Sequence record: OZ346187.1
Source: a phage
Length of the DNA stretch: 64,000 bases
Direction: 5' to 3' (one strand)
Of this stretch, positions 27,134 to 64,000 are shown in pieces. Position 1 is the first letter of the stretch; the number at the start of each line of letters is the position of its first letter. The position numbers and the translations under genes are program-made. The notes beneath the pieces were generated by a model that did not search any database, had not been told where the DNA came from, and saw only the letters and a program-made list of their open reading frames with translations.

Positions 27134-27595
27134 CTACTTAAATAGTAGTCCAAAATAGTGCAAAATTAACAGAAGTTGAACTACACCTAGTGCAACGGCG
27201 AGTATGTTAATCTTAGAATCGAAAAACTTCTTAACTTTTACTCTAAAAGGTTCCTTAATGTCCTTTACGATCCTATTTATAGATGATTTCATATCCCTGA
27301 TTACCATCCTAAACATTAGAGACGGATCTTCCTTCTCTGTAATAGAATCGAAAACATACTCTCTTCGGTCATAAGGACCTCCAGATCTGCGTATTAACCT
27401 CTCCACAGAGACCTCGTACGACACACCTGTAACGTAATCATCTATGATAAGTAGTGACGGGTCTTTATCGTCCAAGGGTATTAAAGTTATCTTTCCAGAT
27501 TTTGTTAAAATTTCTCCTTTTTCAAGCAAGGTGTACCAATGCTCTCTACCAAGATTGTTGAGGCACGTTTTTACATATTTAACAAACATCGTCAC
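27134..27595 (-). CDS. hypothetical protein with C-terminal transmembrane segment
   Basis: Ends ...ILAVALGVVQLLLILHYFGLLFK. Confidence 0.4.
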   Translation of the reverse strand: MTMFVKYVKTCLNNLGREHWYTLLEKGEILTKSGKITLIPLDDKDPSLLIIDDYVTGVSYEVSVERLIRRSGGPYDRREYVFDSITEKEDPSLMFRMVIRDMKSSINRIVKDIKEPFRVKVKKFFDSKINILAVALGVVQLLLILHYFGLLFK

Positions 27596-27996: not shown

Positions 27997-28314
27997 TTAG
28001 GTGCGGTCTCCATCCCTACTCTCCTTCCTGATATTCTTGTAGTAATCAACTAGGCACATTATTACGATGAAGATAACAACAGGCCAAAAAGGTGCAGCAG
28101 TGATGATGGTGATAAAATCATCAAACTTCACCCTTCGTCTGGACACGATGCATACACCTGTCAAGAATACCGCTGTTATAACGGACATTACCAGGTAACC
28201 TATTAGCACAACATTTATACTCATTGGTCCTCCCCTTTGTAGGTTAAATTGTATACTACAAATGGTCGCTGAGGGTGTCAAGAAAATTATCCCGTTCTTT
28301 CTCAGAGTTTTCAT
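27997..28314 (-). CDS. small membrane protein
   Basis: Two hydrophobic segments. Confidence 0.35.
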   Translation of the reverse strand: MKTLRKNGIIFLTPSATICSIQFNLQRGGPMSINVVLIGYLVMSVITAVFLTGVCIVSRRRVKFDDFITIITAAPFWPVVIFIVIMCLVDYYKNIRKESRDGDRT

Positions 28315-28789
28315 GTGTGTAGCTGAAAAACATATCGAGAATAACCTTATTGATATATTCCAGCTCCTCTGTGTTCAGATGCTTAGCAGGATCTACAATG
28401 ACATCCCAAATATCATACAGACCACACTCATGATACCCATAACGCCACTCAATTGTCAAGCTGAGCGGCAAATCTTTACCGTCACAAACAACCTTCCATC
28501 TACATATGTTGGTATCTGGTCGTACCTGTGCACGGTACACCTGTACAAAATCCAATTTGAATTTGAGGTACTCGTCATACAATTTAAGCACAAAGCTCTC
28601 GATTTGTGGAGACACTTTTGCAGCAAACTGTGCGTATTTGTACTTGCACTGGATGATCTTTCTGCGTTTTGCAGTTAAATTTTTTGCCGCCAGTTGTTCT
28701 TCAGTGTATCTCCACCTACGATCAACAAACGCAACAGGGTCTTTGTCCCCATAGAGGTCTTCCCAGTTAATCAGAAGCATACCTGTCAC
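28256..28789 (-). CDS. hypothetical protein
   Basis: 177-aa ORF. Confidence 0.4.
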   Translation of the reverse strand: MTGMLLINWEDLYGDKDPVAFVDRRWRYTEEQLAAKNLTAKRRKIIQCKYKYAQFAAKVSPQIESFVLKLYDEYLKFKLDFVQVYRAQVRPDTNICRWKVVCDGKDLPLSLTIEWRYGYHECGLYDIWDVIVDPAKHLNTEELEYINKVILDMFFSYTHENSEKERDNFLDTLSDHL

Positions 28790-50005: not shown

Positions 50006-50302
50006 TCAAGACTTTTTAGTCTTTCTTGGAGAGCTTTTTGTTGATCTTTTCCTTTTGTGGTAGATTCCAAGTGCAGCGTTTTCTTGGGCGCACGTTTTAA
50101 CAGTTCTCAGAGAAGAACTTTCAGCTTTAGGCAGGTTTAACTCCCACCAACCGAGCCAGTAAAGTTCTGATTCCGACAGCTGCTCAGATTCAGCCTTCCG
50201 ATACAATGATTGCATACCTCTAATGATGTCGTCCAGAGGTGTATCGAATACAAAAGCTGTCTTATCAAATTTCTCTTTTACAGGTTTCTTAGCCATGCTC
50301 AC
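50006..50302 (-). CDS. hypothetical protein
   Basis: 98-aa ORF, basic C-terminus. Confidence 0.4.
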   Translation of the reverse strand: MSMAKKPVKEKFDKTAFVFDTPLDDIIRGMQSLYRKAESEQLSESELYWLGWWELNLPKAESSSLRTVKTCAQENAALGIYHKRKRSTKSSPRKTKKS

Positions 50303-51173
50303 CTCTCACACAATCATCCACTGACTTCATAAACTCTTGCACCCAAAGTGCCCCTATTTGAGGAACTATGGCGTTACCGAAGCCTTTGTGGCGAGACAAT
50401 CCCATTGGGGTGGATAGCCCATCAACCAACAAGGGAATGCCGGGTTCAGGAAGTTTACGCCATTTTCCGTCTCGGCATAGATACTGTCTTGTATGCTCCC
50501 ACACCCGTAATACATCCTCACCTGCTCCCACAGATTCCCAGGACTTAATGACTTCCTGCCAGTTGCTAAGCGTTGTTGCTTGCGCCTTTCCATCGCTTCC
50601 TGAGATCTGCACCCTACCTGAGTTACCGTAGGGGTTAACCACGTTGCTAACTGCCCCGAAGTAAAGTCGTTCGCGGCGGTGCGGGGCGTTGAGGATTGCA
50701 GCATTAAGTATGGAAGCCCCGAAGCTGTAACCAGCGTTTTCCATTTCATTCTGCATATCGTCGAGCCATCCGGATTCAATCGCTTTTGCAACCTGCTCTC
50801 CAAACATGAACTCAGGTTTAAGCTGTTTAACGAGCCGGAGGTATGTTGGTGCAAGATGTCTTGGGTCAAATTTTCCACGTTGCTTACCTGCTTGAGAGAA
50901 AGGTTGGCAGCACGGAGATCCTGTGCATACCGACCAAGTTTCTGGAATGCCAGCAAGTTTCAAGGCCAAAGGCCATCCACCTATACCAGCGAAGAAGTGC
51001 CACTGTGTGAAACCTCTAAGATCTTCTACAGTAACCTCTGTAATAGAACGATCATCCACCTCGCCTTGAGGAAGTAGTCCTAAAGATATTAGATTCTTCA
51101 ACCAAGCAACTGCATCTTTATCATTGTCATTGTAGTATACCACACTTAATTCTCCAAATACTGATGTATCCAA
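50289..51173 (-). CDS. cytosine-5 DNA methyltransferase
   Basis: Motif I FAGIGG, motif IV GSPCCQPFSQAG, motif VI-like FGEQV, motif VIII-like HRRERL, motif X-like GFGNAIV. Confidence 0.7.
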   Translation of the reverse strand: MDTSVFGELSVVYYNDNDKDAVAWLKNLISLGLLPQGEVDDRSITEVTVEDLRGFTQWHFFAGIGGWPLALKLAGIPETWSVCTGSPCCQPFSQAGKQRGKFDPRHLAPTYLRLVKQLKPEFMFGEQVAKAIESGWLDDMQNEMENAGYSFGASILNAAILNAPHRRERLYFGAVSNVVNPYGNSGRVQISGSDGKAQATTLSNWQEVIKSWESVGAGEDVLRVWEHTRQYLCRDGKWRKLPEPGIPLLVDGLSTPMGLSRHKGFGNAIVPQIGALWVQEFMKSVDDCVRGEHG

Positions 51174-51661
51174 GAAAAGTCAGTCTTCCATTCCGGAACC
51201 TTGCTAAGCTCCCGCCACTCTGCAAAGCAGTCTCGATAATAAGCCTCTGCCATGCCCTTGGTGATCTTATTCACCTTAGCCAACTGATTAACTGCCTGAG
51301 CATACTTTCCACGGATATTTGCTAACCCAGGGTGCACCGATGTGTGACAATCCGGGCACAACGCTATCAGTCCGACAAGACGGATCACTCCATCTTCGAA
51401 AGTGTAAAGTTCATGACACTCCACTGGGTGTTTGCTGCCCTTACCGCCGCACACCTCACAAGTGTAGTTGGCTTCTCTGTAGCACTTCTTACGGATCTTA
51501 TCCCACTCACTCTTCTTCACAGCGTTTCGGAGGTTATTATACCAAGCTGTTTCTGGGATCAGTTGCACAATAAGCCTGCGTTCAGACTTCATTAAACGTC
51601 CGTCTTCCACGTGTTCTCCCTCATTCAAAGAAATGGGTGCGAGGGCAGGAACCTGCCTCAC
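51146..51661 (-). CDS. zinc-binding protein, possibly HNH-like nuclease
   Basis: CEVCGG...ECHELY...LCPDCHTSVH cysteine/histidine pattern. Confidence 0.3.
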   Translation of the reverse strand: MRQVPALAPISLNEGEHVEDGRLMKSERRLIVQLIPETAWYNNLRNAVKKSEWDKIRKKCYREANYTCEVCGGKGSKHPVECHELYTFEDGVIRLVGLIALCPDCHTSVHPGLANIRGKYAQAVNQLAKVNKITKGMAEAYYRDCFAEWRELSKVPEWKTDFSWIHQYLEN

Positions 51662-51827
51662 CTTGTTTCACAAGCTCGTAGAGCTCACCTTGGCCTGTCT
51701 CATAAAGGCAAATACGTTTACCATTGTCCCGATATACATCGACAAGATACGCTGTTTCACCTGCAAACACGACACCACAGGCCAGACATGCTGTCATGAA
51801 CAAAATTGCCAACAGAAAATCTTTCAT
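51621..51827 (-). CDS. small putative lipoprotein
   Basis: Signal-like N-terminus with LAC lipobox-like motif (MKDFLLAILFMTACLACG); directly downstream of endolysin. Confidence 0.35.
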   Translation of the reverse strand: MKDFLLAILFMTACLACGVVFAGETAYLVDVYRDNGKRICLYETGQGELYELVKQGEAGSCPRTHFFE

Positions 51828-51890
51828 GGTTAAACCCTCCTAAACATTTTATGAGGTAACAATACCACGTCCGTGTGGTTATGTCAATGA

Positions 51891-52361
51891 TCAATCCAGG
51901 ACAACGCCACCTGCTTTTTTAAACACATCGATCAACTTCTCGATCTTCTGTTCATGCTGACCATATCCAGCACCAGGTAGCGAAGCCCAGCGGGAACGGC
52001 ATTTGTGGATAGCTTCGTGGATACGCCCTTCGTCAATGTCAGCGAGAGCCTTGCACTCACGGATCAGTTGCAACGCAATCTTGTCCTGACTGGCAGGGCC
52101 AAAATCTGGTAATCCTAGCTGCTTCATATAGTGTTTAGCGAACTTCTCCAAAACCTGGTAACGCCCAGCAGCGGAGGAGGTAAGTTTAGCATTTAGCTTA
52201 ACGTAAACACCGGGATGCTTGCTGTAATCGCTGAACAGCTTGCCACCGACTATGACATCGTATCCACGATCCTTGGTAGGTTGTCTACCATTATCTGTGC
52301 CTTCCGAATATGCGATCATATCCAAGAAAGCTTTTCGTTGAACATTTTTATCAAGTTTCAT
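51891..52361 (-). CDS. endolysin, lambda R-type lytic transglycosylase
   Basis: Near-collinear with lambda R: AFLDMIAYSEGTDNGRQPTKDRGYDVIVGG ... RYQVLEKF ... ASLPGAGYGQHE. Confidence 0.85.
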   Translation of the reverse strand: MKLDKNVQRKAFLDMIAYSEGTDNGRQPTKDRGYDVIVGGKLFSDYSKHPGVYVKLNAKLTSSAAGRYQVLEKFAKHYMKQLGLPDFGPASQDKIALQLIRECKALADIDEGRIHEAIHKCRSRWASLPGAGYGQHEQKIEKLIDVFKKAGGVVLD

Positions 52362-52485
52362 TTTTCATACTCTCCAGTTTACTCATAACTAACCCGATCA
52401 ACAACACTGCATAGTGTGGTTATGTAGGTGCCAATTGAAAAACCATCATTCAATTGACTACCGTTGCCTACTAAACCTTCCTACA

Positions 52486-53769
52486 TCATTCCAGCACCTC
52501 CCAAGTGTCTGGGTTAACATTCCGGACGCAGATACCGACAGGGAATTGGTAGTTGTTGTCTTCTGTCCTTGCTTGATATTTGAAGGTGACAAACTTGCCG
52601 ATCATTTCCTGCATTCTGTCATAGCTACGCTCCTCGTGCGTACCTTTCATCTTCATTTTAACAACAACACCTTCCTTGTCAACACAGATAAGAACACCTT
52701 CATCATTCTTATCTTTCTCAACGTCAATAACTTTCACCTCTGCGTCGTTGAACTTTTTCCATTTCAATGCTTCAGATGTTCGCTGACCATACTCATATTT
52801 ACCGCAGAAATTACGCATGATAGTACCTTCATATCCTTCGGACATGAATATACCAACAGATTCTTCGCAATGATCAACTGTGTACGCAAGCTCTGCGTCA
52901 ACAACCTTGATATGATCAAGCATCAGAGTGGTAACGGTATCCTCTGCATCCATAAGATCCTTGCAGCGTCCAGACTCTGTTTCTGGATCCCACCACACCT
53001 TGTCGCTAGGAATATCAAAAATGTGATACTCCAGATCGTAGCTACAGTATCCACCGTAACGCAAATCATCACGAACAGGCTCAACATCGACAGGAATATC
53101 TACCTTGTTGAAGTTTTTGTATGTTGATAAGCCTGCCTTAATTGCTGCATGACGGCGTTTTTTATCTGCCTCATAGTCTTTATCGATCTCGGCCTGAATC
53201 TCTTCCTGTGTGCGCCACCGTTTAGCAAGAGACACTATTTTCTGCAAAGGAAGACCATGAATGTATAGTTCCCCATCAAGTTGTTTAATCCCAGTGGTAG
53301 AATGGAAAGAACGAAGTTGCTCTAAAAGCTTTCCTTGAATAGGGTAGGACTTATTACCACGGGAAATAAATTTAGGCTCACCATTTTGGAAAACAACAAG
53401 CAGACGAAGGCCATCTAACTTACGCAAGATCCAGCAAGGTAATTTAAGTGCCTTGCCACGCTTCAGGTAGTCATGCACCAGCATAGGTAAAAGATCAACA
53501 CCCTGCTCGCAATCTTCCATGTTTTCAACATACCCCAGACGGACTTGTTTTTCCCACTTGCTGATAGCCTCAAGCTCGGCCTGTTGCTCAGCTGTAGTCT
53601 CGTTGGCACGACCTACGTTTTTAGGTGTGCATACCGTCTCTTTGTACTGCAATTTACCGTCAAGCTTGCCAAACTCTACGATAACCTTTTCGCCATCAGT
53701 GAATACTTTCCACTGTTGGTAGCTGCCATCTTTGTTCAGTGCGTACAGTGTTGTTTTGATTTGATGCAT
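52486..53769 (-). CDS. ATP-dependent DNA ligase
   Basis: Nucleotidyltransferase motif I KLDGLR (KxDGxR); 427 aa. Confidence 0.65.
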   Translation of the reverse strand: MHQIKTTLYALNKDGSYQQWKVFTDGEKVIVEFGKLDGKLQYKETVCTPKNVGRANETTAEQQAELEAISKWEKQVRLGYVENMEDCEQGVDLLPMLVHDYLKRGKALKLPCWILRKLDGLRLLVVFQNGEPKFISRGNKSYPIQGKLLEQLRSFHSTTGIKQLDGELYIHGLPLQKIVSLAKRWRTQEEIQAEIDKDYEADKKRRHAAIKAGLSTYKNFNKVDIPVDVEPVRDDLRYGGYCSYDLEYHIFDIPSDKVWWDPETESGRCKDLMDAEDTVTTLMLDHIKVVDAELAYTVDHCEESVGIFMSEGYEGTIMRNFCGKYEYGQRTSEALKWKKFNDAEVKVIDVEKDKNDEGVLICVDKEGVVVKMKMKGTHEERSYDRMQEMIGKFVTFKYQARTEDNNYQFPVGICVRNVNPDTWEVLE

Positions 53770-54038
53770 TACTCGGCCTCTTCCTTAAAAATTTTAAACA
53801 TCTCTTCTTTACTCATTACCAACCAGTCTCCCATAAAGTCAACTAACCAATCTCCCTGGTACAAAACCAAGTTGCCAAACGGCTCAACAAGCTCACACAT
53901 GCGACGAATATCTCTGGTCCGAACAGGTGACGATGTAAACACACCTGTATCAATCCACCGTTGCAGATCAGATACTGATGAAGAGCTTCCATCAAACTGG
54001 TGTGCTTCTACAGGTTTAGCAAGATTAAATAACGGCAT
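53769..54038 (-). CDS. hypothetical protein
   Basis: 89-aa ORF. Confidence 0.4.
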   Translation of the reverse strand: MPLFNLAKPVEAHQFDGSSSSVSDLQRWIDTGVFTSSPVRTRDIRRMCELVEPFGNLVLYQGDWLVDFMGDWLVMSKEEMFKIFKEEAE

Positions 54039-54333
54039 TGCAGTCCTCCTTCTGTAGTAGGTCTTTTATAGGATAAACAAGTAAGTGTGGATCGGAATAA
54101 CGTATAGTCCTATTCTGCCATACTATGAACTTTATTACAACCAAATTTACAATATCTTTATCACCATGTAGCCCAACACACACATTTGTCCATATTTTGT
54201 GGTTGAAGATCTTGCTATCGATGTAGATTTTAGTGTCAAACTTATCTTCCATTCTACCTATAAGTTTGATCAGCTCCTTCATCTGGTCGCCAAACACAGC
54301 ATCTTTTTCAAGATCTCTGGAATGCTTGTACAT
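54025..54333 (-). CDS. hypothetical protein
   Basis: 102-aa ORF. Confidence 0.4.
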   Translation of the reverse strand: MYKHSRDLEKDAVFGDQMKELIKLIGRMEDKFDTKIYIDSKIFNHKIWTNVCVGLHGDKDIVNLVVIKFIVWQNRTIRYSDPHLLVYPIKDLLQKEDCNAVI

Positions 54334-54395
54334 AACTAACTACCTCACTGCATACTTTCCATAATAAGTAAAGCCGGGTAATCCCGGCTATGTTG

Positions 54396-55109
54396 TTAAA
54401 TATACTCTGTTACATCCTTGAAGCTCGAAGGCTTCATAATCTTACCTTTACTGTCAAGGAATATAATAGCTTTATTACCGTTGTAGAACTCCTCTTTAGC
54501 AACGAAACCTTCGTAGCGACCACCAAAACGACGCTCAAGATCTTCAATCTCTAACTCTATGAGCAATTCAGTAGACATATCTGCACTGGCACCGTGAGAA
54601 TATCGTAGATGGTTGATCCGTGCAAACTTGCTGTCATTAGATTTGAGAACCTTCCGCATCATCCCACACACATCGCCGCGAAGCTGGAACAGCAAAGCTG
54701 TTGACAACTCCGCTAAGCGGTAAGCTGACGCTCTTTGCTTGGATGTGTTTTTCGCAGCGATCAGTGTATCATAGAACTCACCGATCTTGAACTTAAGACC
54801 TCGTGGATTATCAAACAGGTTTGACCACTTTTCGTGATTATCATTAACAAGATAAGCGGCATAACTTGTGACAACGTGAAGATCGCAGGCCTCTTTTAGC
54901 AGGTGATCTCCACCATCACCTTTCTCCAGCTCTTCCAAAACCTCATTGAACTCTTCCTCAATGAAGCTAAGCTGTAATTCGAATGGTGTGTATGATTTTT
55001 TCACTTTAGCTGCCACACGGTTCCAGTTTTCCACCCAGTTGGCAGACCAAAGGTAGTTTTCAGGCTGAGACAGTTTTTCCAGGTTGTCGATCAGTTTAGT
55101 ATTCAGCAT
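54396..55109 (-). CDS. putative MazG-like nucleotide pyrophosphohydrolase
   Basis: EEEFNEVLEELEKGDGGDHLLKEACDLHVV resembles the MazG EExxE...E..D metal-binding helix pair. Confidence 0.35.
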   Translation of the reverse strand: MLNTKLIDNLEKLSQPENYLWSANWVENWNRVAAKVKKSYTPFELQLSFIEEEFNEVLEELEKGDGGDHLLKEACDLHVVTSYAAYLVNDNHEKWSNLFDNPRGLKFKIGEFYDTLIAAKNTSKQRASAYRLAELSTALLFQLRGDVCGMMRKVLKSNDSKFARINHLRYSHGASADMSTELLIELEIEDLERRFGGRYEGFVAKEEFYNGNKAIIFLDSKGKIMKPSSFKDVTEYI

Positions 55110-55122
55110 TGAAGGTCTCCTT

Positions 55123-55884
55123 TTAAAGTTCCATAAAGTTTTCTACAGTTTCAATAAATGCTTTATCAGAGAAAGCGTCAACAGCACCGTTAAACCATAC
55201 AGGGATCCCGCGATCCTCATATTGATAAAGGTCGCTACGTGAAATGCCACTTCCATCTGCACTCTGCGAGTCATACTTGTTTACAATCAGCAGTTTTGTG
55301 CCTTTACAAGTAGCAGGAAACAATTCCCAGTTAAAATTAATAACTGTGTTAGAACAACCTACTAGGATCACCATATCATTGCTTGTGAGAGATGTCAACA
55401 GGTCATACATGTCTGTATACTTAGGAGCAACCTCACCGAAGAACACTACATTGGGCTTAACCCAGGTATACTTGCCTGTATCTACCTCCGTGTATCCGAT
55501 ATTTTTAATTACATCATTACCTTCAGCATCTTCGTAGGTGATTTCAGGCAAATACCCGTGGACATGTAAAATATCTTCATGTTTTACACCAGCACGCTCC
55601 AGCAAATCATCTACATTGGTGGTAAGGTTGATCACACGACCAGACCAGCGGGAATACCACTCAGCGATCCGAAGATGTGCAAGGTTAGGATCAACACTGC
55701 CCAGAGCTACACGACGTGCATTGTAAAAGTCATGCACCTTATAGTAATTCTTGGCAAAGGTGTGAATGTTGCACACCTCATCGATGCTGAAATTCTCCCA
55801 CATTGCAGTGCTACCAGATCGGAAAGTGGGAATACCAGATTCAGCGCTCAAACCAGCACCGGAGATAATAATCAGTCGTCGCAT
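55123..55884 (-). CDS. Sir2-like NAD-dependent enzyme lacking the zinc ribbon
   Basis: GAGLSAESGIPTFRSG, TTNVDDLLERAG, HVHGY sirtuin motifs; no CxxC...CxxC zinc module. Confidence 0.7.
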   Translation of the reverse strand: MRRLIIISGAGLSAESGIPTFRSGSTAMWENFSIDEVCNIHTFAKNYYKVHDFYNARRVALGSVDPNLAHLRIAEWYSRWSGRVINLTTNVDDLLERAGVKHEDILHVHGYLPEITYEDAEGNDVIKNIGYTEVDTGKYTWVKPNVVFFGEVAPKYTDMYDLLTSLTSNDMVILVGCSNTVINFNWELFPATCKGTKLLIVNKYDSQSADGSGISRSDLYQYEDRGIPVWFNGAVDAFSDKAFIETVENFMEL

Positions 55885-55892
55885 AAGTGTCC

Positions 55893-56243
55893 TCAGTAGA
55901 TGTTTTGTTTAATCTCTATTCCAAACTTCTTGAATGAGTCAGCAGCAAGCATAAATTTACGAGCTGCCGATGGATTAGAAGTATGCACGAAAATAATCAC
56001 GTTGTCAATAAGTGGTGGCTTTCCGAATACAAGTTTCTCCTCTAGCGCAGAGAAGCAGTCGTACCCTTCAAGCACTTCACCTAGATCATTGTCAAAATAC
56101 CACTCAGATACGCGTCTGTAGAGCTTTCTCTTATCATTAAGAAAATCCATAAACTCAGAAGAATTCTTTAGCCACAGAGCGTCTGGGAGTCCATAATCTG
56201 ACGGATCTCTAAAATCATCAAGCCACACAATCCACTTCTTCAT
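55893..56243 (-). CDS. hypothetical protein
   Basis: 116-aa ORF between Sir2-like and RNA-ligase-like genes. Confidence 0.4.
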   Translation of the reverse strand: MKKWIVWLDDFRDPSDYGLPDALWLKNSSEFMDFLNDKRKLYRRVSEWYFDNDLGEVLEGYDCFSALEEKLVFGKPPLIDNVIIFVHTSNPSAARKFMLAADSFKKFGIEIKQNIY

Positions 56244-57175
56244 TGCATATAGTCCTCGTTGTGGAAATAGTAGTCCAGTATCTCACGACGCTCCTGCTCT
56301 AATAAGCAATTCCACACATCTTCTGTATAGTTGCTACGAATAAATTTTACCATACCGTAAAACTCTTCGTCAACACGTTTAAAGATATCATCATCCCAAA
56401 TCTTCCAAGCTTTACCCCTCATTACTGCCTTCTGTGCCAGATAGTATGGAGACTTGATCTTCAGCTGCAGATCATAAGGGTAGTAAGGCTTACGAATCAT
56501 ATACCCTTCACCTCTTGTTTCTGCAGCTAATTCTTTTGCATAGCTGAACGGAATTTCACGCACAGTGTTAGGACGTTTTGCACCAAGGTATTTGGCAATC
56601 CCATCTAAAGCTGCTTCTGGTAGCATTATTCCAGAATCATTATATCTGCAACCTATCAAATATGCGCCATGGTCTTCTTGAACAATATGCGGATCTGAAG
56701 GGTGACAAATTTCAAACATGAATGTCATGTTTTCATTGCCCATAACCTTCTTGATAAGATCTAAATTACCACATTGCTCTTGGATGGTTTCCTTTGCAAG
56801 GTTACAATATGGAGAATCAAGAGACCCGGTTGTTGAGAACAATAGGTCACCTTTATGAGATGATACCACACCAAGGAATCCGTTCTTTTTCTCTACCGCA
56901 GTCACAAGCTTATTGTCAGGCAGGTTGGTGGAGTTTTCTCCCAAGTTAAACACTTTTGTGAAGGGCCATGCCACAACATTTCCTTCATTACCTACAACAA
57001 TGCCTCGGCACTCCAGTAAACGAGGGGACAAATGCCATAAATTGTTGTAAAATACTTTTCTAGCATATTTATAGATCTTTAACCCGAGATCTGGGTAATA
57101 CCTACTGGTTGCAAGACCTTTGTCAACTAGGTCGTCTGCATTAAAATACTTCATTATATGTTCCTCATTTGTCAT
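56240..57175 (-). CDS. putative RNA ligase (Rnl1-like nucleotidyltransferase)
   Basis: Motif I-like EKKNG, motif IV-like EGYMIR, motif V-like LKIKSP; likely start is the second Met (57154) after a GAGGAA RBS. Confidence 0.45.
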   Translation of the reverse strand: MTNEEHIMKYFNADDLVDKGLATSRYYPDLGLKIYKYARKVFYNNLWHLSPRLLECRGIVVGNEGNVVAWPFTKVFNLGENSTNLPDNKLVTAVEKKNGFLGVVSSHKGDLLFSTTGSLDSPYCNLAKETIQEQCGNLDLIKKVMGNENMTFMFEICHPSDPHIVQEDHGAYLIGCRYNDSGIMLPEAALDGIAKYLGAKRPNTVREIPFSYAKELAAETRGEGYMIRKPYYPYDLQLKIKSPYYLAQKAVMRGKAWKIWDDDIFKRVDEEFYGMVKFIRSNYTEDVWNCLLEQERREILDYYFHNEDYMQ

Positions 57176-57218
57176 TTTGTCAGTCTATCCTGCCACACAA
57201 ATAACTTAGTGTCAACAC

Positions 57219-57247
57219 TTGAAATTAACAAAACAGTTAGGTATACT
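57219..57247 (+). promoter_or_regulatory. sigma70-type promoter
   Basis: TTGAAA, 17-bp spacer, TATACT. Confidence 0.45.
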
Positions 57248-57275
57248 ACCGTTGAAATTAAAACGGAGGGTCGCT

Positions 57276-57686
57276 ATGTCTAAAATGCTATATATCGTGC
57301 GTGGTCTACCAGGGTCTGGCAAATCAACACTGGCAAATGCGCTATCTTTAGAGGGTCTGTATCCACATTTTGAGAACGACATGTTCTGGTATGACGATGA
57401 CGGCAATTACAACTGGGATGCAAGTAAAGTAACACTCGCAGCAAAATGGTGCAAAGATAACGTAGAAGATATGATGCGTATGGGATACGACCGTATCGTG
57501 GTAAGTAATACGTTTACAAAAGAAAAACATGTGCAGGAATATGTTGACATGGCAATCACTCATGGGTATAGTTATACCGTGATCGTGGTTGAAAACCGCC
57601 ACGGCAATAAAAGCATTCATGATGTTCCAGACAAGGTTGTGGATCGTATGGAACGCCAGCTTAAAAACTGCATTAAACTTAAATGA
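57276..57686 (+). CDS. P-loop kinase, polynucleotide-kinase-like
   Basis: Walker A GLPGSGKST; ATG at 57276 after ACGGAGGG; ORF track 57219-57686. Confidence 0.5.
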   Translation: MSKMLYIVRGLPGSGKSTLANALSLEGLYPHFENDMFWYDDDGNYNWDASKVTLAAKWCKDNVEDMMRMGYDRIVVSNTFTKEKHVQEYVDMAITHGYSYTVIVVENRHGNKSIHDVPDKVVDRMERQLKNCIKLK

Positions 57687-57693
57687 GGAATGT

Positions 57694-58248
57694 ATGAAAT
57701 ACTTTGTAACAAGCGACACACACTTTCTCCACCAGCGGGTCATGGAGTTTGATTCATGTCAAAAACACAGATCTCAGTATGATCACAATCTTGACAGTAT
57801 GAATGCGGGAATCATCACCAAGTGGAACTCTGTTGTGTCACCTGCAGACACTGTGTTCCACTTGGGAGATATTGCATGCACTAATGATAAGAATATCAAC
57901 AAATTGCTCCCAGATATTCTAAATATGTTGAACGGACATATTATTCTTGTTCGTGGCAACCATGACACAAGGACGACTGTCAAAATTATGAAAGAGTTCG
58001 GTCATGAGGTTGTAGATTATTACGAGCTTCGCCACAACAAGAATTTGATCTGTATGAGCCATTACCAGTTTGCAAAGTGGAACAGAAAGCCTCACGGATC
58101 AGTCCAACTGTTCGGTCATGCTCACGGAACCACACAACAGTTGTTTGGCAGGCAGCTTGATGTCGGTTGGGATGTGTGGGGGAGACTCTTACCATTAGAA
58201 GAGGCATACCGTATTGCAATGAGTTTTGATATTGACAGCAGGGAGTAA
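57694..58248 (+). CDS. calcineurin-like metallophosphoesterase
   Basis: SDTHF, GDI, GNHD metallophosphatase motifs; ATG at 57694 after GAGGAA; ORF track 57589-58248. Confidence 0.6.
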   Translation: MKYFVTSDTHFLHQRVMEFDSCQKHRSQYDHNLDSMNAGIITKWNSVVSPADTVFHLGDIACTNDKNINKLLPDILNMLNGHIILVRGNHDTRTTVKIMKEFGHEVVDYYELRHNKNLICMSHYQFAKWNRKPHGSVQLFGHAHGTTQQLFGRQLDVGWDVWGRLLPLEEAYRIAMSFDIDSRE

Positions 58249-58295
58249 TCCCTGCTATTTTAAAGAAAATTGCCACACAAGGAGAATCAGGAGAT

Positions 58296-58646
58296 ATGAA
58301 AGATGGGGATAAGCTGCTATATCTTAAAGTCCCCCTTGAAATACTATCTATGTCAAAAGTTTTGAATGACACAACTGGGGAGGTTGTTGTTCTTGACTTG
58401 TATGACAAGATCGTATACTGCTACCTGCACAACTGGTATAAGCTTGGAGGAAATTCACGCTTCACACCAAGCACAAGGAAAATTGCAGCAGATGTTGGGA
58501 TAAAGAAAACAAAAGCAGCAGCGTGCGTTAAAACTTTAGAATGTGCAGGAGTGGTTGAAACATCCACACAAGGGAGAGGTAAAAGATGCACATTTTCCAA
58601 AGTTTTGCCACCAGAAGAAGTTATTCGGATGTCAACAACTGGTTAG
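58296..58646 (+). CDS. hypothetical protein, possibly DNA-binding
   Basis: 116-aa ORF directly upstream of the iteron-like repeats. Confidence 0.35.
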   Translation: MKDGDKLLYLKVPLEILSMSKVLNDTTGEVVVLDLYDKIVYCYLHNWYKLGGNSRFTPSTRKIAADVGIKKTKAAACVKTLECAGVVETSTQGRGKRCTFSKVLPPEEVIRMSTTG

Positions 58647-58717
58647 ACCAGTAAAAACTTAAATATCTGTACTATAAGGATTCGTATGTTTTATGTTCGC
58701 CATGGAACGGATACTAT

Positions 58718-58783
58718 TAACTGTCCGTGATACGGACACATCTGCCCGTAATACGGACACTAACTGTCCGTGATACGGACACA
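58718..58783. repeat. three tandem ~21-bp iteron-like repeats, each an inverted repeat
   Basis: TAACTGTCCGTGATACGGACACA at 58718 and 58761 (identical) and TCTGCCCGTAATACGGACAC between; each is GTCCGT-N3-ACGGAC; followed by an AT-rich segment with GGTACTAAGTAC / CTAAGTACC palindromes (58790-58920). Confidence 0.8.
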
Positions 58784-58920
58784 TAAAGAATATAACTAAA
58801 ATAACTAAATAATAAAAAATAAAAGATCTAGTACTTATGGTACTAAGTACATATACTTAACTTATGTAGAATATACTAGATCCTAAGTACCATGTTTTAA
58901 ATTTATTACTTACTATGGGC

Positions 58921-59170
58921 AGTGTCGGCCCTTCATTGGCACTCGCCTACGAGGGGCGAGATGCCGGGCCTCCTTGGTGCACACAATAACAGAAGTTCAT
59001 ACATGCAGGTCTGTTAACATGTGTGGGAGCGAAGCGATAGCGCAGGCCAAAGGCCGAGCACTGATGTGGGCCACCGACGAAAGCTTGCCAGCGCCGTAAG
59101 GAGTCGGTTGAGAGTCTCCCGCACGAGCTTGGATGAAGTTTATGTGTGGAAACTGACAAGAAGGCCCCTA
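58921..59170 (+). ncRNA. candidate structured non-coding RNA (unclassified)
   Basis: ~250 bp GC-rich block in AT-rich surroundings; several hairpins (CTCGCC-TACGAGG-GGCGAG, GGCC-AAA-GGCC); only a weak overlapping minus-strand ORF. Confidence 0.25.
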
Positions 59171-59285
59171 AATCGCTCCACAGCTATATAAACTATACCA
59201 GGTAATGCAATCGCACCAGTTTGATAGAAAAGCTCGTTACAAAGCGATACAGTGAGTTTTTCTATAACTTGAAGAGGAGGCAGCT

Positions 59286-59864
59286 ATGGGTTCACGCAAA
59301 GATGACCGTGAAAAGATTGCAAAACGTTATCAGAATGAAGAACAGATGGAGAAAACTTTCAAGTGGAAGCCAGGTTTCCAGCGTAATCATTCTAACGCTC
59401 GTGATCGTAAGCATCCGGATAAGTGGTTAACACCGCCAAATGATGGCATGCAGGTTGGGGATGAGAAGGAGCTGTCACCTGGAAAAGATGGCAACTACAT
59501 TCGCACTAAGGAAGCAGGTCCAAAGGATGACAGCTATCTTGTAGATAAGGTTCTTGACGGTGTTGATGTAGGTGTTGACACTGTACGAAACCTTTTTCTT
59601 GGTTGGTATCGCACAGGGTTTTTCGACATCAAGGCTATTCGTCGTGTTTGTGATATTAAAAAGTCTGCCTACGATGATGATTCCCTACATCGCACTCTGA
59701 GACAATACTCAGAGAGGTACGGTCATCCAGTTATCACTCTTGACGATATTAACGAAGTTATGTATCATGTAGAGGTTGTTGCAGGTAGGTTCGGTGATGC
59801 ATATCTCGGTATTCTTTCTGCAAAGGATGAGGTAATGTTAAATAAGATTTACTATGAACGCTGA
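59286..59864 (+). CDS. hypothetical protein
   Basis: 192-aa ORF after AGGAGG RBS. Confidence 0.5.
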   Translation: MGSRKDDREKIAKRYQNEEQMEKTFKWKPGFQRNHSNARDRKHPDKWLTPPNDGMQVGDEKELSPGKDGNYIRTKEAGPKDDSYLVDKVLDGVDVGVDTVRNLFLGWYRTGFFDIKAIRRVCDIKKSAYDDDSLHRTLRQYSERYGHPVITLDDINEVMYHVEVVAGRFGDAYLGILSAKDEVMLNKIYYER

Positions 59865-59874
59865 GGGGCGATTA

Positions 59875-60063
59875 ATGAACAATCCGGTAGCAAAGAACTG
59901 TAATAAATTCAACAAGTCTGCGATTCACACTGACAGGAAAAAGAGTTGGTTTCCTGACATTGACGAGGAGCTTGAGAGTTACTTTGAAGATTTAGTCACC
60001 AATGCAGATGAGGTTGCGATTAAAGAATACGCAGACAGGAGGGATAAGGCCGGAATCTGTTGA
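59875..60063 (+). CDS. hypothetical protein
   Basis: ORF track 59854-60063; ATG at 59875. Confidence 0.35.
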   Translation: MNNPVAKNCNKFNKSAIHTDRKKSWFPDIDEELESYFEDLVTNADEVAIKEYADRRDKAGIC

Positions 60064-60088
60064 CAAAAATAATGTTACCTGATAAGAT
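60060..60088 (+). promoter_or_regulatory. sigma70-type promoter
   Basis: TTGACA, 17-bp spacer, TAAGAT. Confidence 0.5.
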
Positions 60089-60139
60089 CTGCAATATGAT
60101 GTGATACAATTTTAACTTACGAGGTCTACAGGTAATGCT

Positions 60140-60382
60140 ATGTTTAAGGTTAAGCTCGTTTTTCGTTCCATGAATGAGGATTATTTAGAAGATGAAGGTG
60201 AATTTCGTGCACTGGATGATGCAATAGATTTTGCCAACGACTTAGCTTGTATGAATACGGGTTATGGGCTATGCTGTTGGGATGGTGGTGTTCAGATCGG
60301 TGATAGCAAGATCTTCTACTTCTACCCTGAGCCTGATAACAAACAAATTAAGTATGTTTTATTTATTTGTGCTTTACAATGA
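60140..60382 (+). CDS. hypothetical protein
   Basis: 80-aa ORF downstream of promoter. Confidence 0.4.
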   Translation: MFKVKLVFRSMNEDYLEDEGEFRALDDAIDFANDLACMNTGYGLCCWDGGVQIGDSKIFYFYPEPDNKQIKYVLFICALQ

Positions 60383-60669
60383 GGTTGTTTTCGTGTATCA
60401 TGATGAATATCCAATTTAAAGATGAATTTGATGGCTTTATCTCCGGATGCTTTGAAACAGGGTTCGGAGAAGGCTGAGTTCCCCTTAGAGGGCTTGATAG
60501 TGCACCACACTTAAAATGGTAGGGGCAGCCAGCACATGACGATGTGACCCCAGCCAACCTGTAATAAGGTCGAGCCAAAGTGCGGTAATGGGCTCTGGTA
60601 ACCCACTTGTTGGGTCTTGCTGGTCCAGGACGCTGGACAAGTCGCAGGGAATACCACCCTGCGGCGAAC

Positions 60670-60698
60670 TTGACAATCAGTATTTGCTATGATAAAAT
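60670..60698 (+). promoter_or_regulatory. sigma70-type promoter
   Basis: TTGACA, 17-bp spacer, TAAAAT. Confidence 0.5.
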
Positions 60699-60726
60699 CC
60701 ACCTATCACGTGATAATGGAGGAAAC

Positions 60727-61065
60727 ATGGCGGATACAACTAAAAAGCGTCGCCGTAGAGGCAGACCTCTGAAAGAGGAGTCCAACGCCATTCAGCTAGA
60801 GAAGAACATCCTTGATATGAAGGAATCTTTTATAGCGATGGTTCCAGAAGCTCACAAAGTTTTAAGAGAGCTGATGTTGGACCCGAAAACCAAACAAAAT
60901 ATTCGTCAAAGCATTGCAGAGTATGTTCTTGATAAGGCAGACCGAATGCAGGAAGAATATGATGAGATGTTTGGTGAAGAGGAAGAGGTGGTAGTGGAAG
61001 AGGCTGAAAAACCAGCACCTTTTATGCCATTTACTACAGAAATACAGCCTGTTAGCAATAGCTAA
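60727..61065 (+). CDS. AT-hook-containing small acidic protein
   Basis: ATG at 60727 after GGAGGAAAC; N-terminal KKRRRRGRPLK (AT-hook-like RGRP); acidic C-terminus; ORF track 60607-61065. Confidence 0.4.
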   Translation: MADTTKKRRRRGRPLKEESNAIQLEKNILDMKESFIAMVPEAHKVLRELMLDPKTKQNIRQSIAEYVLDKADRMQEEYDEMFGEEEEVVVEEAEKPAPFMPFTTEIQPVSNS

Positions 61066-61074
61066 AATATTTTC

Positions 61075-61103
61075 TTGACAAACTTTGCTTAACAGTGTAA
61101 TAT
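61075..61103 (+). promoter_or_regulatory. sigma70-type promoter upstream of tRNA cluster
   Basis: TTGACA, 17-bp spacer, TAATAT. Confidence 0.5.
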
Positions 61104-61162
61104 TGTAAACATGGTCTCCCACCTTTTCTGGCGGCTAAGGTGTAAAAGAAAGCCACCCAGTG

Positions 61163-61237
61163 CCCTGTTAGCTTAGTGGATAAAGCAGCGGCCTTCTAAG
61201 CCGTTGACACTGGTTCGAGTCCAGTACGGGGTGCCAA
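61163..61237 (+). tRNA. tRNA-Arg (anticodon TCT)
   Basis: Hand-folded cloverleaf: acceptor GCCCTGT/ACGGGGT (with G.U pairs), anticodon loop CTTCTAA, T-loop GGTTCGAGTCC, CCA encoded. Confidence 0.65.
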
Positions 61238-61241
61238 ATTG

Positions 61242-61327
61242 GGGAGTTATCCCGTAGAGGTAGCGGTGTAGACTGTAAATCTATTGTCATTGCGACTCGG
61301 GTGGTTCGACTCCACCACTCCCCACCA
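61242..61327 (+). tRNA. tRNA-Tyr (anticodon GTA), long variable arm
   Basis: Acceptor GGGGAGT/ACTCCCC, anticodon loop CTGTAAA, T-arm GGTGG-TTCGACT-CCACC, CCA encoded. Confidence 0.65.
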
Positions 61328-61441
61328 AATTTATATTTTTAGATGCATAAATAATACAGATAATGGCATTGATATTTATCGTCGTTTATACTAGTCACTA
61401 ACTGCTCGAAAATCAGTGTCATTATCAGTATAATTTATAAA

Positions 61442-61532
61442 GGAGGGTAGGGAGCAATGGTGCTCAAGCGGTCTTGAAAACCGTCCCGTTGAGGATGACT
61501 CGATGATGGTTCGATTCCATTACTCTCCGCCA
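61442..61532 (+). tRNA. tRNA-Ser (anticodon TGA), long variable arm
   Basis: Acceptor GGAGGGT/ACTCTCC, D-stem GAGC/GCTC, anticodon loop CTTGAAA, T-loop GGTTCGATTCC, CCA encoded. Confidence 0.6.
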
Positions 61533-61630
61533 CATTGTTGACCTTGTAATTAAGCGAAAGCCGGAAGCAGAACCGGATTATCAAATGTTACAGTCGTCAT
61601 CGCCGACTAGCAACATGGTCAACATACTGA

Positions 61631-61729
61631 GCTAGGTAAGCCCTTTGGCAAGGGCGAGGATTTTTAATCCTGAAAATAGACGAGGTAGTCGTTGAATACA
61701 TAGGTGGTTCGATTCCATCACCTAGCACC
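61631..61729 (+). tRNA. atypical tRNA-like gene (~99 nt), anticodon ambiguous (most consistent with TTT)
   Basis: Perfect 7-bp acceptor GCTAGGT/ACCTAGC, D-arm GCCC-TTTGGCAA-GGGC, T-arm GGTGG-TTCGATT-CCATC; anticodon stem imperfect with loop TTTTTAA; ~29-nt extra region before the T-arm; 3' end ACC then T (CCA not fully encoded). Confidence 0.35.
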
Positions 61730-61734
61730 TTTTT

Positions 61735-61810
61735 GCTGATGTAGCACAATCGGTAGTGCAATTGATTTGTAATCAATAGGTTGTAGGTTCAAGTCCTGCC
61801 ATCAGCACCA
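61735..61810 (+). tRNA. tRNA-Thr (anticodon TGT)
   Basis: Acceptor GCTGATG/CATCAGC, D-arm GCAC-AATCGGTA-GTGC, anticodon stem ATTGA/TCAAT with loop TTTGTAA, CCA encoded. Confidence 0.7.
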
Positions 61811-61811
61811 A

Positions 61812-61886
61812 GGCCCTGTAGCTGGAAGGTTCAAGCAAGCGACTCATAATCGCCAGACGGTGGTTCAATTCCACCCAGGGCCACCA
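61812..61886 (+). tRNA. tRNA-Met (anticodon CAT; initiator, elongator or Ile-lysidine type not resolved)
   Basis: Acceptor GGCCCTG/CAGGGCC, anticodon loop CTCATAA, T-arm GGTGG-TTCAATT-CCACC, CCA encoded. Confidence 0.65.
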
Positions 61887-61897
61887 AATAGTAAATA

Positions 61898-61974
61898 CTC
61901 CGCGTAGCTCAGCTTGGTAGAGCGCCTGATTTGGGATCAGGAGGTCGAGTGTTCGAATCACTCCGTGGAGACCA
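61898..61974 (+). tRNA. tRNA-Pro (anticodon TGG)
   Basis: Acceptor CTCCGCG/CGTGGAG, D-arm GCTC-AGCTTGGTA-GAGC, anticodon stem CCTGA/TCAGG with loop TTTGGGA, T-arm GAGTG-TTCGAAT-CACTC, CCA encoded. Confidence 0.7.
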
Positions 61975-62020
61975 CTTTCAGTTATACTTTAAACATATAT
62001 AAACAAAAGGAACCTTTAAA

Positions 62021-62290
62021 ATGTATACACTTAAAATTGTAGAGCGTGTAAATCCAACTCATACCGTAGATTTTCGTGACGATTTCAATCCTCTGGCTGT
62101 AAATCTTCGAGAGTCATATCATGAACTCAGCTGCGATGCAGTGGTGGTCTTTTTTGAAGACAACTCTGAAGGGGCGGTAGCTTGTGTTGTTGATAGTGAG
62201 CAGAAGTTTTATATTTACAGAGATGTAGATGCATACTTGATGAATGAAAATGCAGTTACTGTTAGAATCATCCACCGAGTGCCTCGATAA
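62021..62290 (+). CDS. hypothetical protein
   Basis: 89-aa ORF after AAAGGAAC; followed by terminator. Confidence 0.45.
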   Translation: MYTLKIVERVNPTHTVDFRDDFNPLAVNLRESYHELSCDAVVVFFEDNSEGAVACVVDSEQKFYIYRDVDAYLMNENAVTVRIIHRVPR

Positions 62291-62342
62291 GTATTAGTCT
62301 CCTTTTAGTTAGTTTCGATCTATTTAGGTTACTCAATTTTAA

Positions 62343-62377
62343 CCCGCCCCGTTAGCTGTATAGCTGCGGGGTTTTTT
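62343..62377 (+). terminator. rho-independent terminator
   Basis: GC-rich hairpin CCGCCCCG...CGGGG followed by TTTTTT. Confidence 0.55.
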
Positions 62378-62395
62378 CGTTTCTGGAGCCTTAAA

Positions 62396-62794
62396 ATGAT
62401 TTCAGTTTTAACATGGCTGAGCAGGTATAAAGGGATCATAAAAGGTTTAGTTTTTGCAGCTGCGATAGGTACAGCTTATCTTGGGGCCGTGTATTGGTTT
62501 AACTCTAAGCTTAATGATGCCTACCAAGAAGGTGTGTCAGCAACAGAGTTAAAGTGGGAACGGATCCTTGATCAGCAACAAAAGCAGGCCGACAAAATTA
62601 AAATGGGCCACGCAGAGGAGGTTAAAAACCTTGAAAAATCCCTTTCTGATCTGCAGGATAAATTAAATATAGCTGAGAAGGCAGGTAAAGAAAAGCAGAT
62701 TATCTACCTCCAGTCACCTGAAGGCAAGAAGTCAACACTTCCTGATCAGCTTATAGATATTTATAATGAGAGTATCAATCAGGAGGATCAATGA
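62396..62794 (+). CDS. inner-membrane spanin (i-spanin, Rz-like)
   Basis: N-terminal TM segment GLVFAAAIGTAYLGAVYWF followed by charged coiled-coil; followed directly by a lipoprotein gene. Confidence 0.6.
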   Translation: MISVLTWLSRYKGIIKGLVFAAAIGTAYLGAVYWFNSKLNDAYQEGVSATELKWERILDQQQKQADKIKMGHAEEVKNLEKSLSDLQDKLNIAEKAGKEKQIIYLQSPEGKKSTLPDQLIDIYNESINQEDQ

Positions 62795-63078
62795 GAGTTG
62801 CTACACTGTTTATTGTGTGCTTGTTATTATGTGGGTGTGCAACCAGCGTTGAGAGAGAATACAAGATTGACCCTCCTGATGTAGGAAGGTTGATTGTTAA
62901 ACCCCCGGAAGGTGCCATGAAACCACCTGCTAAAGCTATGCCTTTGAAGAAAGGTGCGCCAGATGCAGTGAATTCTGGCATTATGAGGGATAATAATCTG
63001 TCTTGTAGCAATGATAGAGCTAAATTGATCATTTTGCAAGACTATATTAGAACACTTTTTCCAAAGGAGAGAGGTTAA
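62791..63078 (+). CDS. outer-membrane spanin (o-spanin, Rz1-like lipoprotein)
   Basis: Signal peptide with lipobox LLCGC, proline-rich mature region; start overlaps the i-spanin stop. Confidence 0.6.
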   Translation: MRVATLFIVCLLLCGCATSVEREYKIDPPDVGRLIVKPPEGAMKPPAKAMPLKKGAPDAVNSGIMRDNNLSCSNDRAKLIILQDYIRTLFPKERG

Positions 63079-63503
63079 TGTCTAAGATTTACGGACCGTG
63101 TTCTGAAAAGCAGAAGATGATCCTAGAAAACGATGCAGATATTTTGGTAATCGGCGGTGCCGCAGGGTCTGGCAAGTCGTTCCTCTTGCAATTGATGCCA
63201 CTTAAAATTATTGATGACCCCCACAGCTCTGTGGTTATGTTCCGAAGAACAACCCCACAGTTGGAAGGTGAGGGTGGATTATGGCCTAAAGCAGTAGCTA
63301 TTTATAGTGATCTGCCTGAAAACATTAAGCCAAAGTTTAGAGAGAAGGATCATAAGTTCATTTTTCCACGGTTTGATCCGAACACTGGCAAGTGGGATAG
63401 AAGCAAAAAGGGAGCTGTTGTAAAATACTGCCACATGGAGTATGTACAAGATAAGCTTAACCATCAGGGGCTTGAGTACACCATGGTTTGCTTCGATGAG
63501 GGT
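63078..63503 (+). CDS. terL: terminase large subunit, exon 1 (ATPase N-terminus)
   Basis: Walker A GGAAGSGKS, Walker B MVCFDEG; ORF stop 63504-63506 falls immediately after the proposed 5' splice site (exon ends in U). Confidence 0.5.
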
Positions 63504-64000
63504 TAATTTGTAGCTCTCGTAAAACCTCCCTAATTGCGGGGAAATCTTTATTATTGACACCACCAACCTGTCATGGTAACATGACAGAGGCTTCGAAGAG
63601 AGATCGAAGGTATGGTAACAGTGTGTTAATTTAGATAATCCGCAGCGAAGCATCCGAGAGGATGAACGTTCAACGACTAGTCGAAAGACGTAGAATCAAG
63701 CGATTCGAAACGGGAGGGTGAATGTGTAATACTAAGAAATGTATGGATTGCCAAAGAGTTCTACCTATTGATGATTTCTTTTTATCATCTAAGAGCAAGG
63801 ATGGATACTCAGGTACATGCAAGGAATGCTATATGTACTACAGGAAGGGTGGATCTCGTAAAAACAAAAATATGGTTAAGAGAGATGATGCAGCATTGTT
63901 TATTCAAGACTTGCTGAAGAAAGGTGAACTTTTTGAATGCAAATCTTGTCATGAAAGTATGCTCGCTGATAGTTTTTACACAAAACGTGACTATGGTAAA
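63504..64000 (+). mobile_element. group I intron in terL (3' end beyond window)
   Basis: P element AATTGCGGGGAAA (63531), Q element AATCCGCAGC (63640), R element GTTCAACGACTAG (63682), followed by an RBS and ORF. Confidence 0.6.
63722..64000 (+). CDS. intron-encoded zinc-finger protein, probable homing endonuclease (3' partial)
   Basis: ATG after GGGAGGGTGA RBS inside the intron; CxxC ... CxxC and CKSCH cysteine pairs; continues past window end. Confidence 0.4.
   Translation, partial: MCNTKKCMDCQRVLPIDDFFLSSKSKDGYSGTCKECYMYYRKGGSRKNKNMVKRDDAALFIQDLLKKGELFECKSCHESMLADSFYTKRDYGK

Follow-up and report, generated by a model that had tools for sequence, protein, structure and literature searches.

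Scattered lysis genes in a predicted rV5-like Escherichia coli phage, and a candidate family for its holin

The 64,000-nucleotide stretch of phage DNA analyzed here (sequence record OZ346187.1, all of which is called the window) encodes a putative λ R-type endolysin and a putative spanin pair, at loci that lie 10.0 kb apart on opposite strands. This is very probably the ordinary lysis set already described for rV5-like phages, a T4-like three-step system with its parts at separate loci, and its holin probably lies outside the window. The best candidate for that holin is probably a predicted two-helix membrane protein of 88 amino acids that belongs to the phrog_1322 family and is essential in the sister phage Bas54, where its gene is bas54_0039. 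A broader proposal is made more tentatively: phrog_1322 could be an unnamed holin family that supplies the missing holin of the Vequintavirinae and of the phAPEC8/phi92-like phages, in which case the “putative holins” of GenBank would be misannotated and the genome studied here would be a natural deletion mutant.

In the mechanism proposed, the phrog_1322 protein would permeabilize the inner membrane at the end of late expression, with a 104 amino acid protein (the bas54_0037 type) perhaps acting together with this 88 amino acid neighbor; both are encoded in the tail fiber module, about 37–40 kb downstream of the spanin genes. Next, the murein would be cut by the endolysin, after which the spanin complex would fuse or disrupt the outer membrane.

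The scattered layout is known for rV5-like phages and in itself adds nothing, since the original paper on rV5 has it, as do genome notes that followed. That first paper named gp89 as the lysin and gp129 as the putative holin, with their genes “separated ... as in phage T4” (Kropinski 2013, PMC3606486); the layout was described again for LL12 (2019, PMC6658697), and CB7, rV5 and PVP-SE1 were reported to have a spanin pair beside the large terminase gene and no classic cassette (2020, PMC7344957). A census of spanins lists an rv5 family for both subunits (Kongari et al. 2018, PMC6139136), and the BASEL genomes have the inner-membrane (i-) spanin and outer-membrane (o-) spanin as genes 1 and 2 and label another protein, one with two transmembrane domains (TMDs), “putative holin.” What matters more is that the open reading frame (ORF) beside the endolysin gene should be called neither a lipoprotein nor a holin, that the two “putative holin” labels in circulation for these phages, which are candidates for therapy, are contradicted by published essentiality data, and that there is a testable candidate for the real holin. 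The identity of this lysis-timing gene is important where burst size and timing are to be engineered in Vequintavirus phages, which go into phage cocktails.

Essentiality of the lysis genes

The HIDEN-SEQ transposon study of Bas54 (MaxBurger), whose orthologs are 95–100% identical, gives in its published tables the number of TA sites hit out of the total for each gene (Table 1). These published genetics show, by orthologs, that plaque formation requires the endolysin and both spanins but not the 68 amino acid protein encoded beside the endolysin, either of the previously proposed holins, the SleB-like enzyme or rIIA/B. In the same study the T4 genes e, t and pseT.3 were essential, pseT.2 had a strong defect, and rI and rIII were non-essential; T4 t and the Bas37 holin received no insertions. 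Since T4 t is essential in this assay, a true holin would be expected to score as essential too. Among the small membrane ORFs of the window, matched to Bas54 by the order and length of the genes, only the spanins have essential orthologs. Besides the spanins, the only essential small membrane proteins in Bas54 are those of bas54_0037 and bas54_0039, in the tail fiber module and outside the window.

Table 1. Predicted features of the window and the behavior of lysis-related genes in the Bas54 transposon study
Feature	Position	Strand	Match or characteristic	Bas54 gene	TA sites hit/total	Class in Bas54
gp129-type protein, 75 aa (holin proposal of 2013)	27997-28224	-	phrog_10061; two TMDs; ortholog of rV5 gp129	bas54_0164 (95% identical)	17/19	Non-essential
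HNH homing endonuclease, not a lysis gene	51146-51661	-	phrog_5200, E = 1e-71	bas54_0200		Non-essential
68-aa pre-protein	51621-51827	-	phrog_4641; hydrophobic stretch at residues 4-22	bas54_0201	7/8	Non-essential
Soluble GH104 (λ R-type) endolysin, 156 aa	51891-52361	-	Ortholog of rV5 gp89	bas54_0202	0/24	Essential; knockout rescued in trans
Hairpin plus U6, terminator-like	62346-62377	+	19 nt between its end and the i-spanin start codon			
i-spanin (Rz-like), 132 aa	62396-62794	+	phrog_4297, E = 4e-49	bas54_0001	0/29	Essential
o-spanin (Rz1-like), 95 aa	62791-63078	+	phrog_1267, E = 1.3e-22	bas54_0002	0/19	Essential
terL exon 1	63078-63506	+	phrog_9526, E = 5e-76; Pfam Terminase_6N			
BASEL “putative holin”				bas54_0115	27/28	Non-essential
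SleB-like hydrolase				bas54_0065		Non-essential
rIIA, rIIB						Non-essential
104-aa protein			TMD plus coiled coil	bas54_0037	1/20	Essential
88-aa protein			phrog_1322	bas54_0039	0/19	Essential

The endolysin and spanin genes

By their strong family matches, the genes of the two lysis loci are judged to be real genes and not chance ORFs. A preliminary description of the window had placed a λ R-type lytic transglycosylase at 51891-52361, and this assignment is borne out by matches of its product to phrog_90 (E = 2.6e-56), to PDB entry 1AM7 (phmmer, E = 1.2e-56, query residues 4–154 against chain residues 3–153) and, over the full length, to the λ lysozyme structure 3D3D (E about 1e-56). The catalytic glutamate of the λ enzyme, Glu19, is kept (AYSEGTDNG aligned with λ AWSEGTDNG). 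The N-terminus, MKLDKNVQRKAF, is polar, and a hydropathy scan found no segment of the protein at the threshold of 1.6 set for a hydrophobic segment, and so neither a signal-anchor-release (SAR) domain nor a hydrophobic N-terminus. Having no export signal, the enzyme would stay in the cytoplasm until the membrane is breached; it is predicted to be a cytoplasmic, holin-dependent λ R-type lytic transglycosylase. Its gene sits between the DNA ligase and exonuclease genes on the minus strand.

The two ORFs at 62396-62794 and 62791-63078 are predicted to form a two-component spanin. They had been described as an i-spanin/o-spanin pair just upstream of terL, and PHROG matches, a TMD and a lipobox agree with that description. 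The i-spanin matches phrog_4297 over positions 1–130 of 130, has an N-terminal TMD (about residues 14–36, with the peak of the hydropathy scan at residues 14–32) with the remainder periplasmic and no cysteine, and is annotated as an i-spanin in phages navn, JeffSchatz and Bas54. The o-spanin starts with MRVATLFIVCLLLCG followed by C16 and A17; its lipobox is LLCG/C16 (the slash marks the cleavage site), with Ala and no Asp at +2, as for sorting to the outer membrane. Its mature part has 80 amino acids, is proline-rich (DPPDVGRLIVKPPEGAMKPPAKAMP) and contains one further cysteine, C71; at least one periplasmic cysteine in the o-spanin, for intermolecular disulfides, is a rule of the census (Kongari et al. 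2018, PMC6139136). The two genes have the separated architecture, with a four-nucleotide ATGA overlap, and the o-spanin stop codon overlaps the terL start codon as TAATG. They open the terminase/late structural operon, and the pair appears to be translationally coupled to terL, so that the spanins would be made with the late structural proteins.

It is barely credible that these two ORFs encode packaging proteins, for example a small terminase subunit, and not spanins. Both directly precede terL and are coupled to it, some GenBank records name the second “putative large terminase subunit” (in navn it is annotated as a terminase subunit), and the complete lack of transposon insertions in both orthologs would fit such a role. 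Both, however, match spanin PHROGs over their full length; the first has an N-terminal TMD, and the second a canonical lipobox, a proline-rich mature part and a periplasmic cysteine. The census counts both as spanins (PMC6139136), and spanin genes beside terminase genes are known from T7/SP6-type phages (PMC7344957).

The terL gene itself is broken after exon 1, and an endonuclease-like ORF that starts at 63722 runs past the end of the window (64000). A split terL is annotated in relatives and was described for rV5 (PMC3606486), and the arrangement agrees with the intron and homing endonuclease that have been described for rV5, LL12 and Bas54. The hairpin upstream of the i-spanin gene has a predicted RNA folding energy of -16.9 kcal/mol (z-score -3.4), and none of 200 shuffled sequences folds equally well; it may be either the terminator of the tRNA unit or an element of the late 5′ untranslated region. 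Scans for σ70 promoters and for terminators gave results barely above shuffled expectation and are not used as evidence.

When the ORFs of the coding strands were all scanned for hydropathy, no membrane protein turned up beside the endolysin or the spanins except the 68 amino acid protein and the spanins themselves. The preliminary description gave the coordinates of the genes correctly, and it was correct that endolysin and spanins are dispersed, that no holin (here, no adjoining ORF with a stable TMD apart from those just named) stands beside either locus, and that the organization is not that of a cassette, as neither locus has a contiguous holin-endolysin-spanin unit. Pfam gave no match for the 68 amino acid protein, the spanins, the gp129-type protein or the phrog_1322 proteins.

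The phrog_1322 protein as candidate holin

Homologs of the 88 amino acid protein occur in 375 phage records, which include all genera of the Vequintavirinae, phAPEC8-like phages, Aeromonas phages and a Mu-like Pseudomonas phage. The last of these, Bise, has a homolog that is 36% identical over 56 residues (E = 1e-10), and its gene directly follows the endolysin gene and directly precedes an Rz-like gene in which a lipobox ORF is embedded. Bacterial genomes, when scanned, yielded 12 betaproteobacterial prophage loci with a phrog_1322 homolog; in at least nine of the 12 its direct neighbors are, on one side, the gene for a soluble peptidoglycan hydrolase and, on the other, an i-spanin gene that has a lipobox o-spanin gene embedded in it. 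The hydrolases belong to four Pfam families (VanY/M15_4, M15_3, GH108 or Amidase_2). That the family is associated with hydrolases of four unrelated classes speaks for a general role of the phrog_1322 protein in lysis, most simply that of a holin.

Several points weigh against this interpretation. The candidate lies outside the window, and its presence in this genome is deduced from relatives. The phrog_1322 proteins have no Pfam match, and the holin role of the family's members is a prediction. The essentiality of bas54_0039 could in part reflect polarity on an essential fiber gene 10 nt downstream; the HIDEN-SEQ transposon has no terminator, and its authors list polarity as a caveat. Likewise, the absence of insertions in the spanin genes might reflect their coupling to terL. 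The assignment of genes as “early/middle” or “late” rests on gene context. Finally, the two dispensable proteins with two TMDs that have been called holins could be mutually redundant holins.

The other essential small membrane protein bears on the idea that lysis proceeds without a classical holin, with the 104 amino acid protein or an exported SleB-like hydrolase helping, which seems quite unlikely. The 104 amino acid family is found in 224 records that span all Vequintavirinae genera, and its member in Bas54 is essential. Its architecture, an N-out TMD followed by a cytoplasmic helical domain of about 80 amino acids, is like that of Mu gp25 (PMC9239132), and Bise and several prophage cassettes encode a similarly built protein after the spanins. 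On the other hand, releasin acts on SAR endolysins and the endolysin here has no SAR domain; the 104 amino acid protein has no DUF2730 match (E ≤ 1) or other significant Pfam match, nor does the Bise counterpart have DUF2730; and the two proteins match each other in BLASTP with E = 0.48, so no homology is claimed. Its gene directly follows a fiber chaperone gene and could serve fiber assembly, and the SleB-like gene is dispensable in Bas54. By sequence the 104 amino acid protein does not belong to the Mu gp25 releasin family (DUF2730), which it resembles in architecture only.

In several cassettes of Bise and the betaproteobacterial prophages, a small protein that combines a TMD at its N-terminus with a coiled coil (e.g., MTIQVDFWQLVSLLLGF...) is encoded just after the spanins; its architecture, too, is like that of the Mu gp25 releasin, without a DUF2730 match in Bise.

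Previously proposed holins and a missing gene block

The 75 amino acid protein that is orthologous to rV5 gp129 has two TMDs and a charged C-terminus (YYKNIRKESRDGDRT). That it is the holin, possibly redundant with the BASEL “putative holin” in other phages and the sole holin here, is an unlikely alternative to phrog_1322, although several features would suit it. At 75–78 amino acids, with two TMDs and a C-terminus rich in Lys and Arg, proteins of this type resemble class II holins, and the gene shares its strand, and its proposed transcription unit, with the endolysin gene (PMC3606486). The dispensability of bas54_0164 and bas54_0115 as single genes is compatible with redundancy. The genome studied here has lost the bas54_0115-type gene: tblastn of the BASEL “putative holin” against the window gave no match, and the gene falls in the ∼11.8-kb gap described below. 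If the two were redundant, the gp129-type protein would therefore be the sole holin in this phage. Against this, bas54_0164 fails as a required gene, since it tolerates insertions at 17 of 19 TA sites whereas T4 t and the Bas37 holin tolerate none. The family is confined to the genus Vequintavirus (116 records, with some members only 55% identical), whereas the endolysin-independent spanins are common to the subfamily. The gene also lies among small dispensable genes of the early region, 24 kb from the endolysin gene. A “putative glycosidase” ORF beside this gene (28256-28789) was considered as a second endolysin, the hidden partner in a holin-lysin pair, and rejected; it has no Pfam match, its PHROG has no assigned function, and its ortholog is dispensable.

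In BLAST comparisons with HdK5 and JeffSchatz, the window lacks a block of small genes of ∼11.8 kb between 16553 and 16757, in the region 16553-17290. Next to the missing block is an inverted repeat of ∼165 bp (16757-16921 against about 16985-17150), and no record in the phage collection spans the 16553/16757 junction. The block holds the orthologs of bas54_0101 and bas54_0110, both of which were called essential in Bas54. For bas54_0110 the HIDEN-SEQ authors obtained only larger local deletions, which suggests that its essentiality depends on neighboring genes.

The small protein encoded beside the endolysin

The 68 amino acid ORF directly downstream of the endolysin gene had been called lipoprotein-like, and this part of the preliminary description does not hold. 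Ten homologs were aligned, with distant ones from Serratia phage ChuuTotoro and Acinetobacter phage ABPH49 among them. Their hydrophobic stretch at the N-terminus varies, and Cys14 and Cys17 are missing in five of the ten; P0007-P0011 and the homologs of ChuuTotoro and ABPH49 lack them. The residues at -3 and -1 are always small (VFA/G, SFA/G, AWS/G, ASA/S, with the slash at the putative cleavage site), as in a site of the signal peptidase I type, while the mature portion of about 45 residues is strongly conserved, with C40 and C61 invariant. The small residues and the unconserved N-terminal cysteines point to a cleaved Sec signal peptide and not a lipobox. The product is thus most likely a small periplasmic accessory protein that would be secreted, cleaved and disulfide-bonded, and neither a lipoprotein nor a holin; that it has a periplasmic role in lysis timing or in superinfection is a guess. 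The unconserved lipobox cysteine speaks against a lipoprotein, and the variable hydrophobic segment, the cleavage-type site and the dispensable ortholog speak against a holin. An AlphaFold model (predicted local distance difference test score 82) has a helix at residues 2–16 and then a four-stranded β domain, for which Foldseek found no informative PDB match, only generic small β-barrels (best E = 0.06).

A role for this protein in lysis seems fairly unlikely, be it as a one-TMD holin or, more plausibly, as a T4 RI-like periplasmic antiholin or timing regulator or a Spackle-like inhibitor of the tail lysozymes of incoming phages. Its gene adjoins that of the endolysin, and synteny holds even in distant Vequintavirinae: in ChuuTotoro and ABPH49 it keeps its position between the ligase and exonuclease genes, but in these two phages the endolysin gene is not beside it. 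Like RI and Sp the protein would be exported and is small with two cysteines, and like T4 rI its gene is dispensable. For a holin, however, insertions in nearly every TA site of the ortholog and a variable, cleavable-looking hydrophobic segment are contrary evidence, and nothing positive speaks for the regulatory roles; the search by fold yielded only the generic barrels. An accessory protein of the periplasm is still the favored interpretation. The ORF of the HNH endonuclease overlaps the 3′ end of the 68 amino acid ORF by 41 nt.

The exact 12-mer ACATAACCACAC occurs at 51873-51884 and 52414-52425 on the minus strand, ∼50 nt upstream of the 68 amino acid ORF and of the endolysin gene, respectively, and the bases downstream of the two copies are similar. 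These are the only two exact copies in the window, and the whole JeffSchatz genome has one, the endolysin copy. A promoter or regulon motif or a late-promoter signature was rejected on these counts in favor of a local duplication; the repeat could represent a promoter that was duplicated, or the edge of a recombination event.

Phage identity and genome context

From its nucleotide matches the window is judged to come from an rV5-like E. coli phage of the genus Vequintavirus. A megablast search with the 13 kb at 51000-64000, which is Vequintavirus (rV5-like) DNA, matched 749 phage records, 112 of them with at least 80% query coverage. The best match is Escherichia phage vB_EcoM_HdK5 (96.9% identity over 100% of the query), and many further Vequintavirus genomes follow it among the matches. 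The order of genes agrees with the annotated phages navn, HdK5 and JeffSchatz.

A 294 amino acid cytosine-methyltransferase-like ORF (50289-51173, minus strand), labeled “putative modification methylase” in HdK5, is missing in navn and JeffSchatz, with a BLAST gap at 50297-51166; the methylase gene, which lies beside that of the HNH endonuclease, appears to be an indel. A cluster of seven tRNA genes includes a 99-nt tRNA-like gene (61631-61729, plus strand) to which ARAGORN assigns a four-base anticodon, atcc. It is labeled “tRNA-OTHER” in relatives and tRNA-Lys in BASEL, and could be a tRNA gene that contains an intron or is unusual in some other way. A 153 amino acid ORF (27134-27595, minus strand) has a C-terminal TMD and belongs to phrog_7821, which is labeled “virion structural protein”; it has a 142 amino acid counterpart in JeffSchatz and seemingly none in the Bas54 gene table.

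Comparison with known lysis systems

The closest systems are those of rV5 and its relatives (LL12, CB7, Bas54/Bas55), which have the same genes in the same order at about 95–98% identity: the endolysin gene beside that for DNA ligase, a terminase operon that begins with the two spanin genes, and no adjoining holin gene. This genome differs from them in lacking the block that includes the BASEL “putative holin,” and from navn and JeffSchatz in its extra cytosine-methylase-like gene.

Phage T4 (e, t, pseT.3/pseT.2, rI, rIII) also has unlinked genes for endolysin and holin and a separated spanin pair whose genes overlap by four nucleotides, and its endolysin is also soluble. All three classes of lysis protein were needed in the T4 transposon experiment and the antiholins were dispensable. 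The T4 lysozyme, in contrast, is a GH24 enzyme and that of the window a GH104 enzyme; here the spanin genes head the terminase operon, and the candidate holin is not T-like.

In T7 the genes are those for the 3.5 lysozyme, the 17.5 holin, which comes after the tail fiber gene, and the 18.5/18.7 spanins beside the terminase genes. A holin gene in or after the tail fiber genes and a muralytic enzyme among the genes of DNA metabolism would thus be points of likeness to the arrangement proposed here; the differences are that there is no sequence relationship, that the T7 enzyme is an amidase that also regulates RNA polymerase, and that its spanin genes are embedded and not separated. Spanin genes are next to terminase genes in VP4 and SP6 as well (PMC7344957).

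The endolysin is ∼60% identical to λ R by alignment, and the three-step disruption of the envelope would be the same as that by λ S-R-Rz/Rz1. Unlike λ, there is here no contiguous cassette and no S-like holin gene by the R-like gene, and the spanin genes are separated and not embedded. In the cassettes of Mu-like phages and prophages such as Bise, the phrog_1322 gene lies between the endolysin and spanin genes, whereas in the rV5-like phages it lies in the tail fiber module, far from both, and the proteins of the two groups are 30–45% identical.

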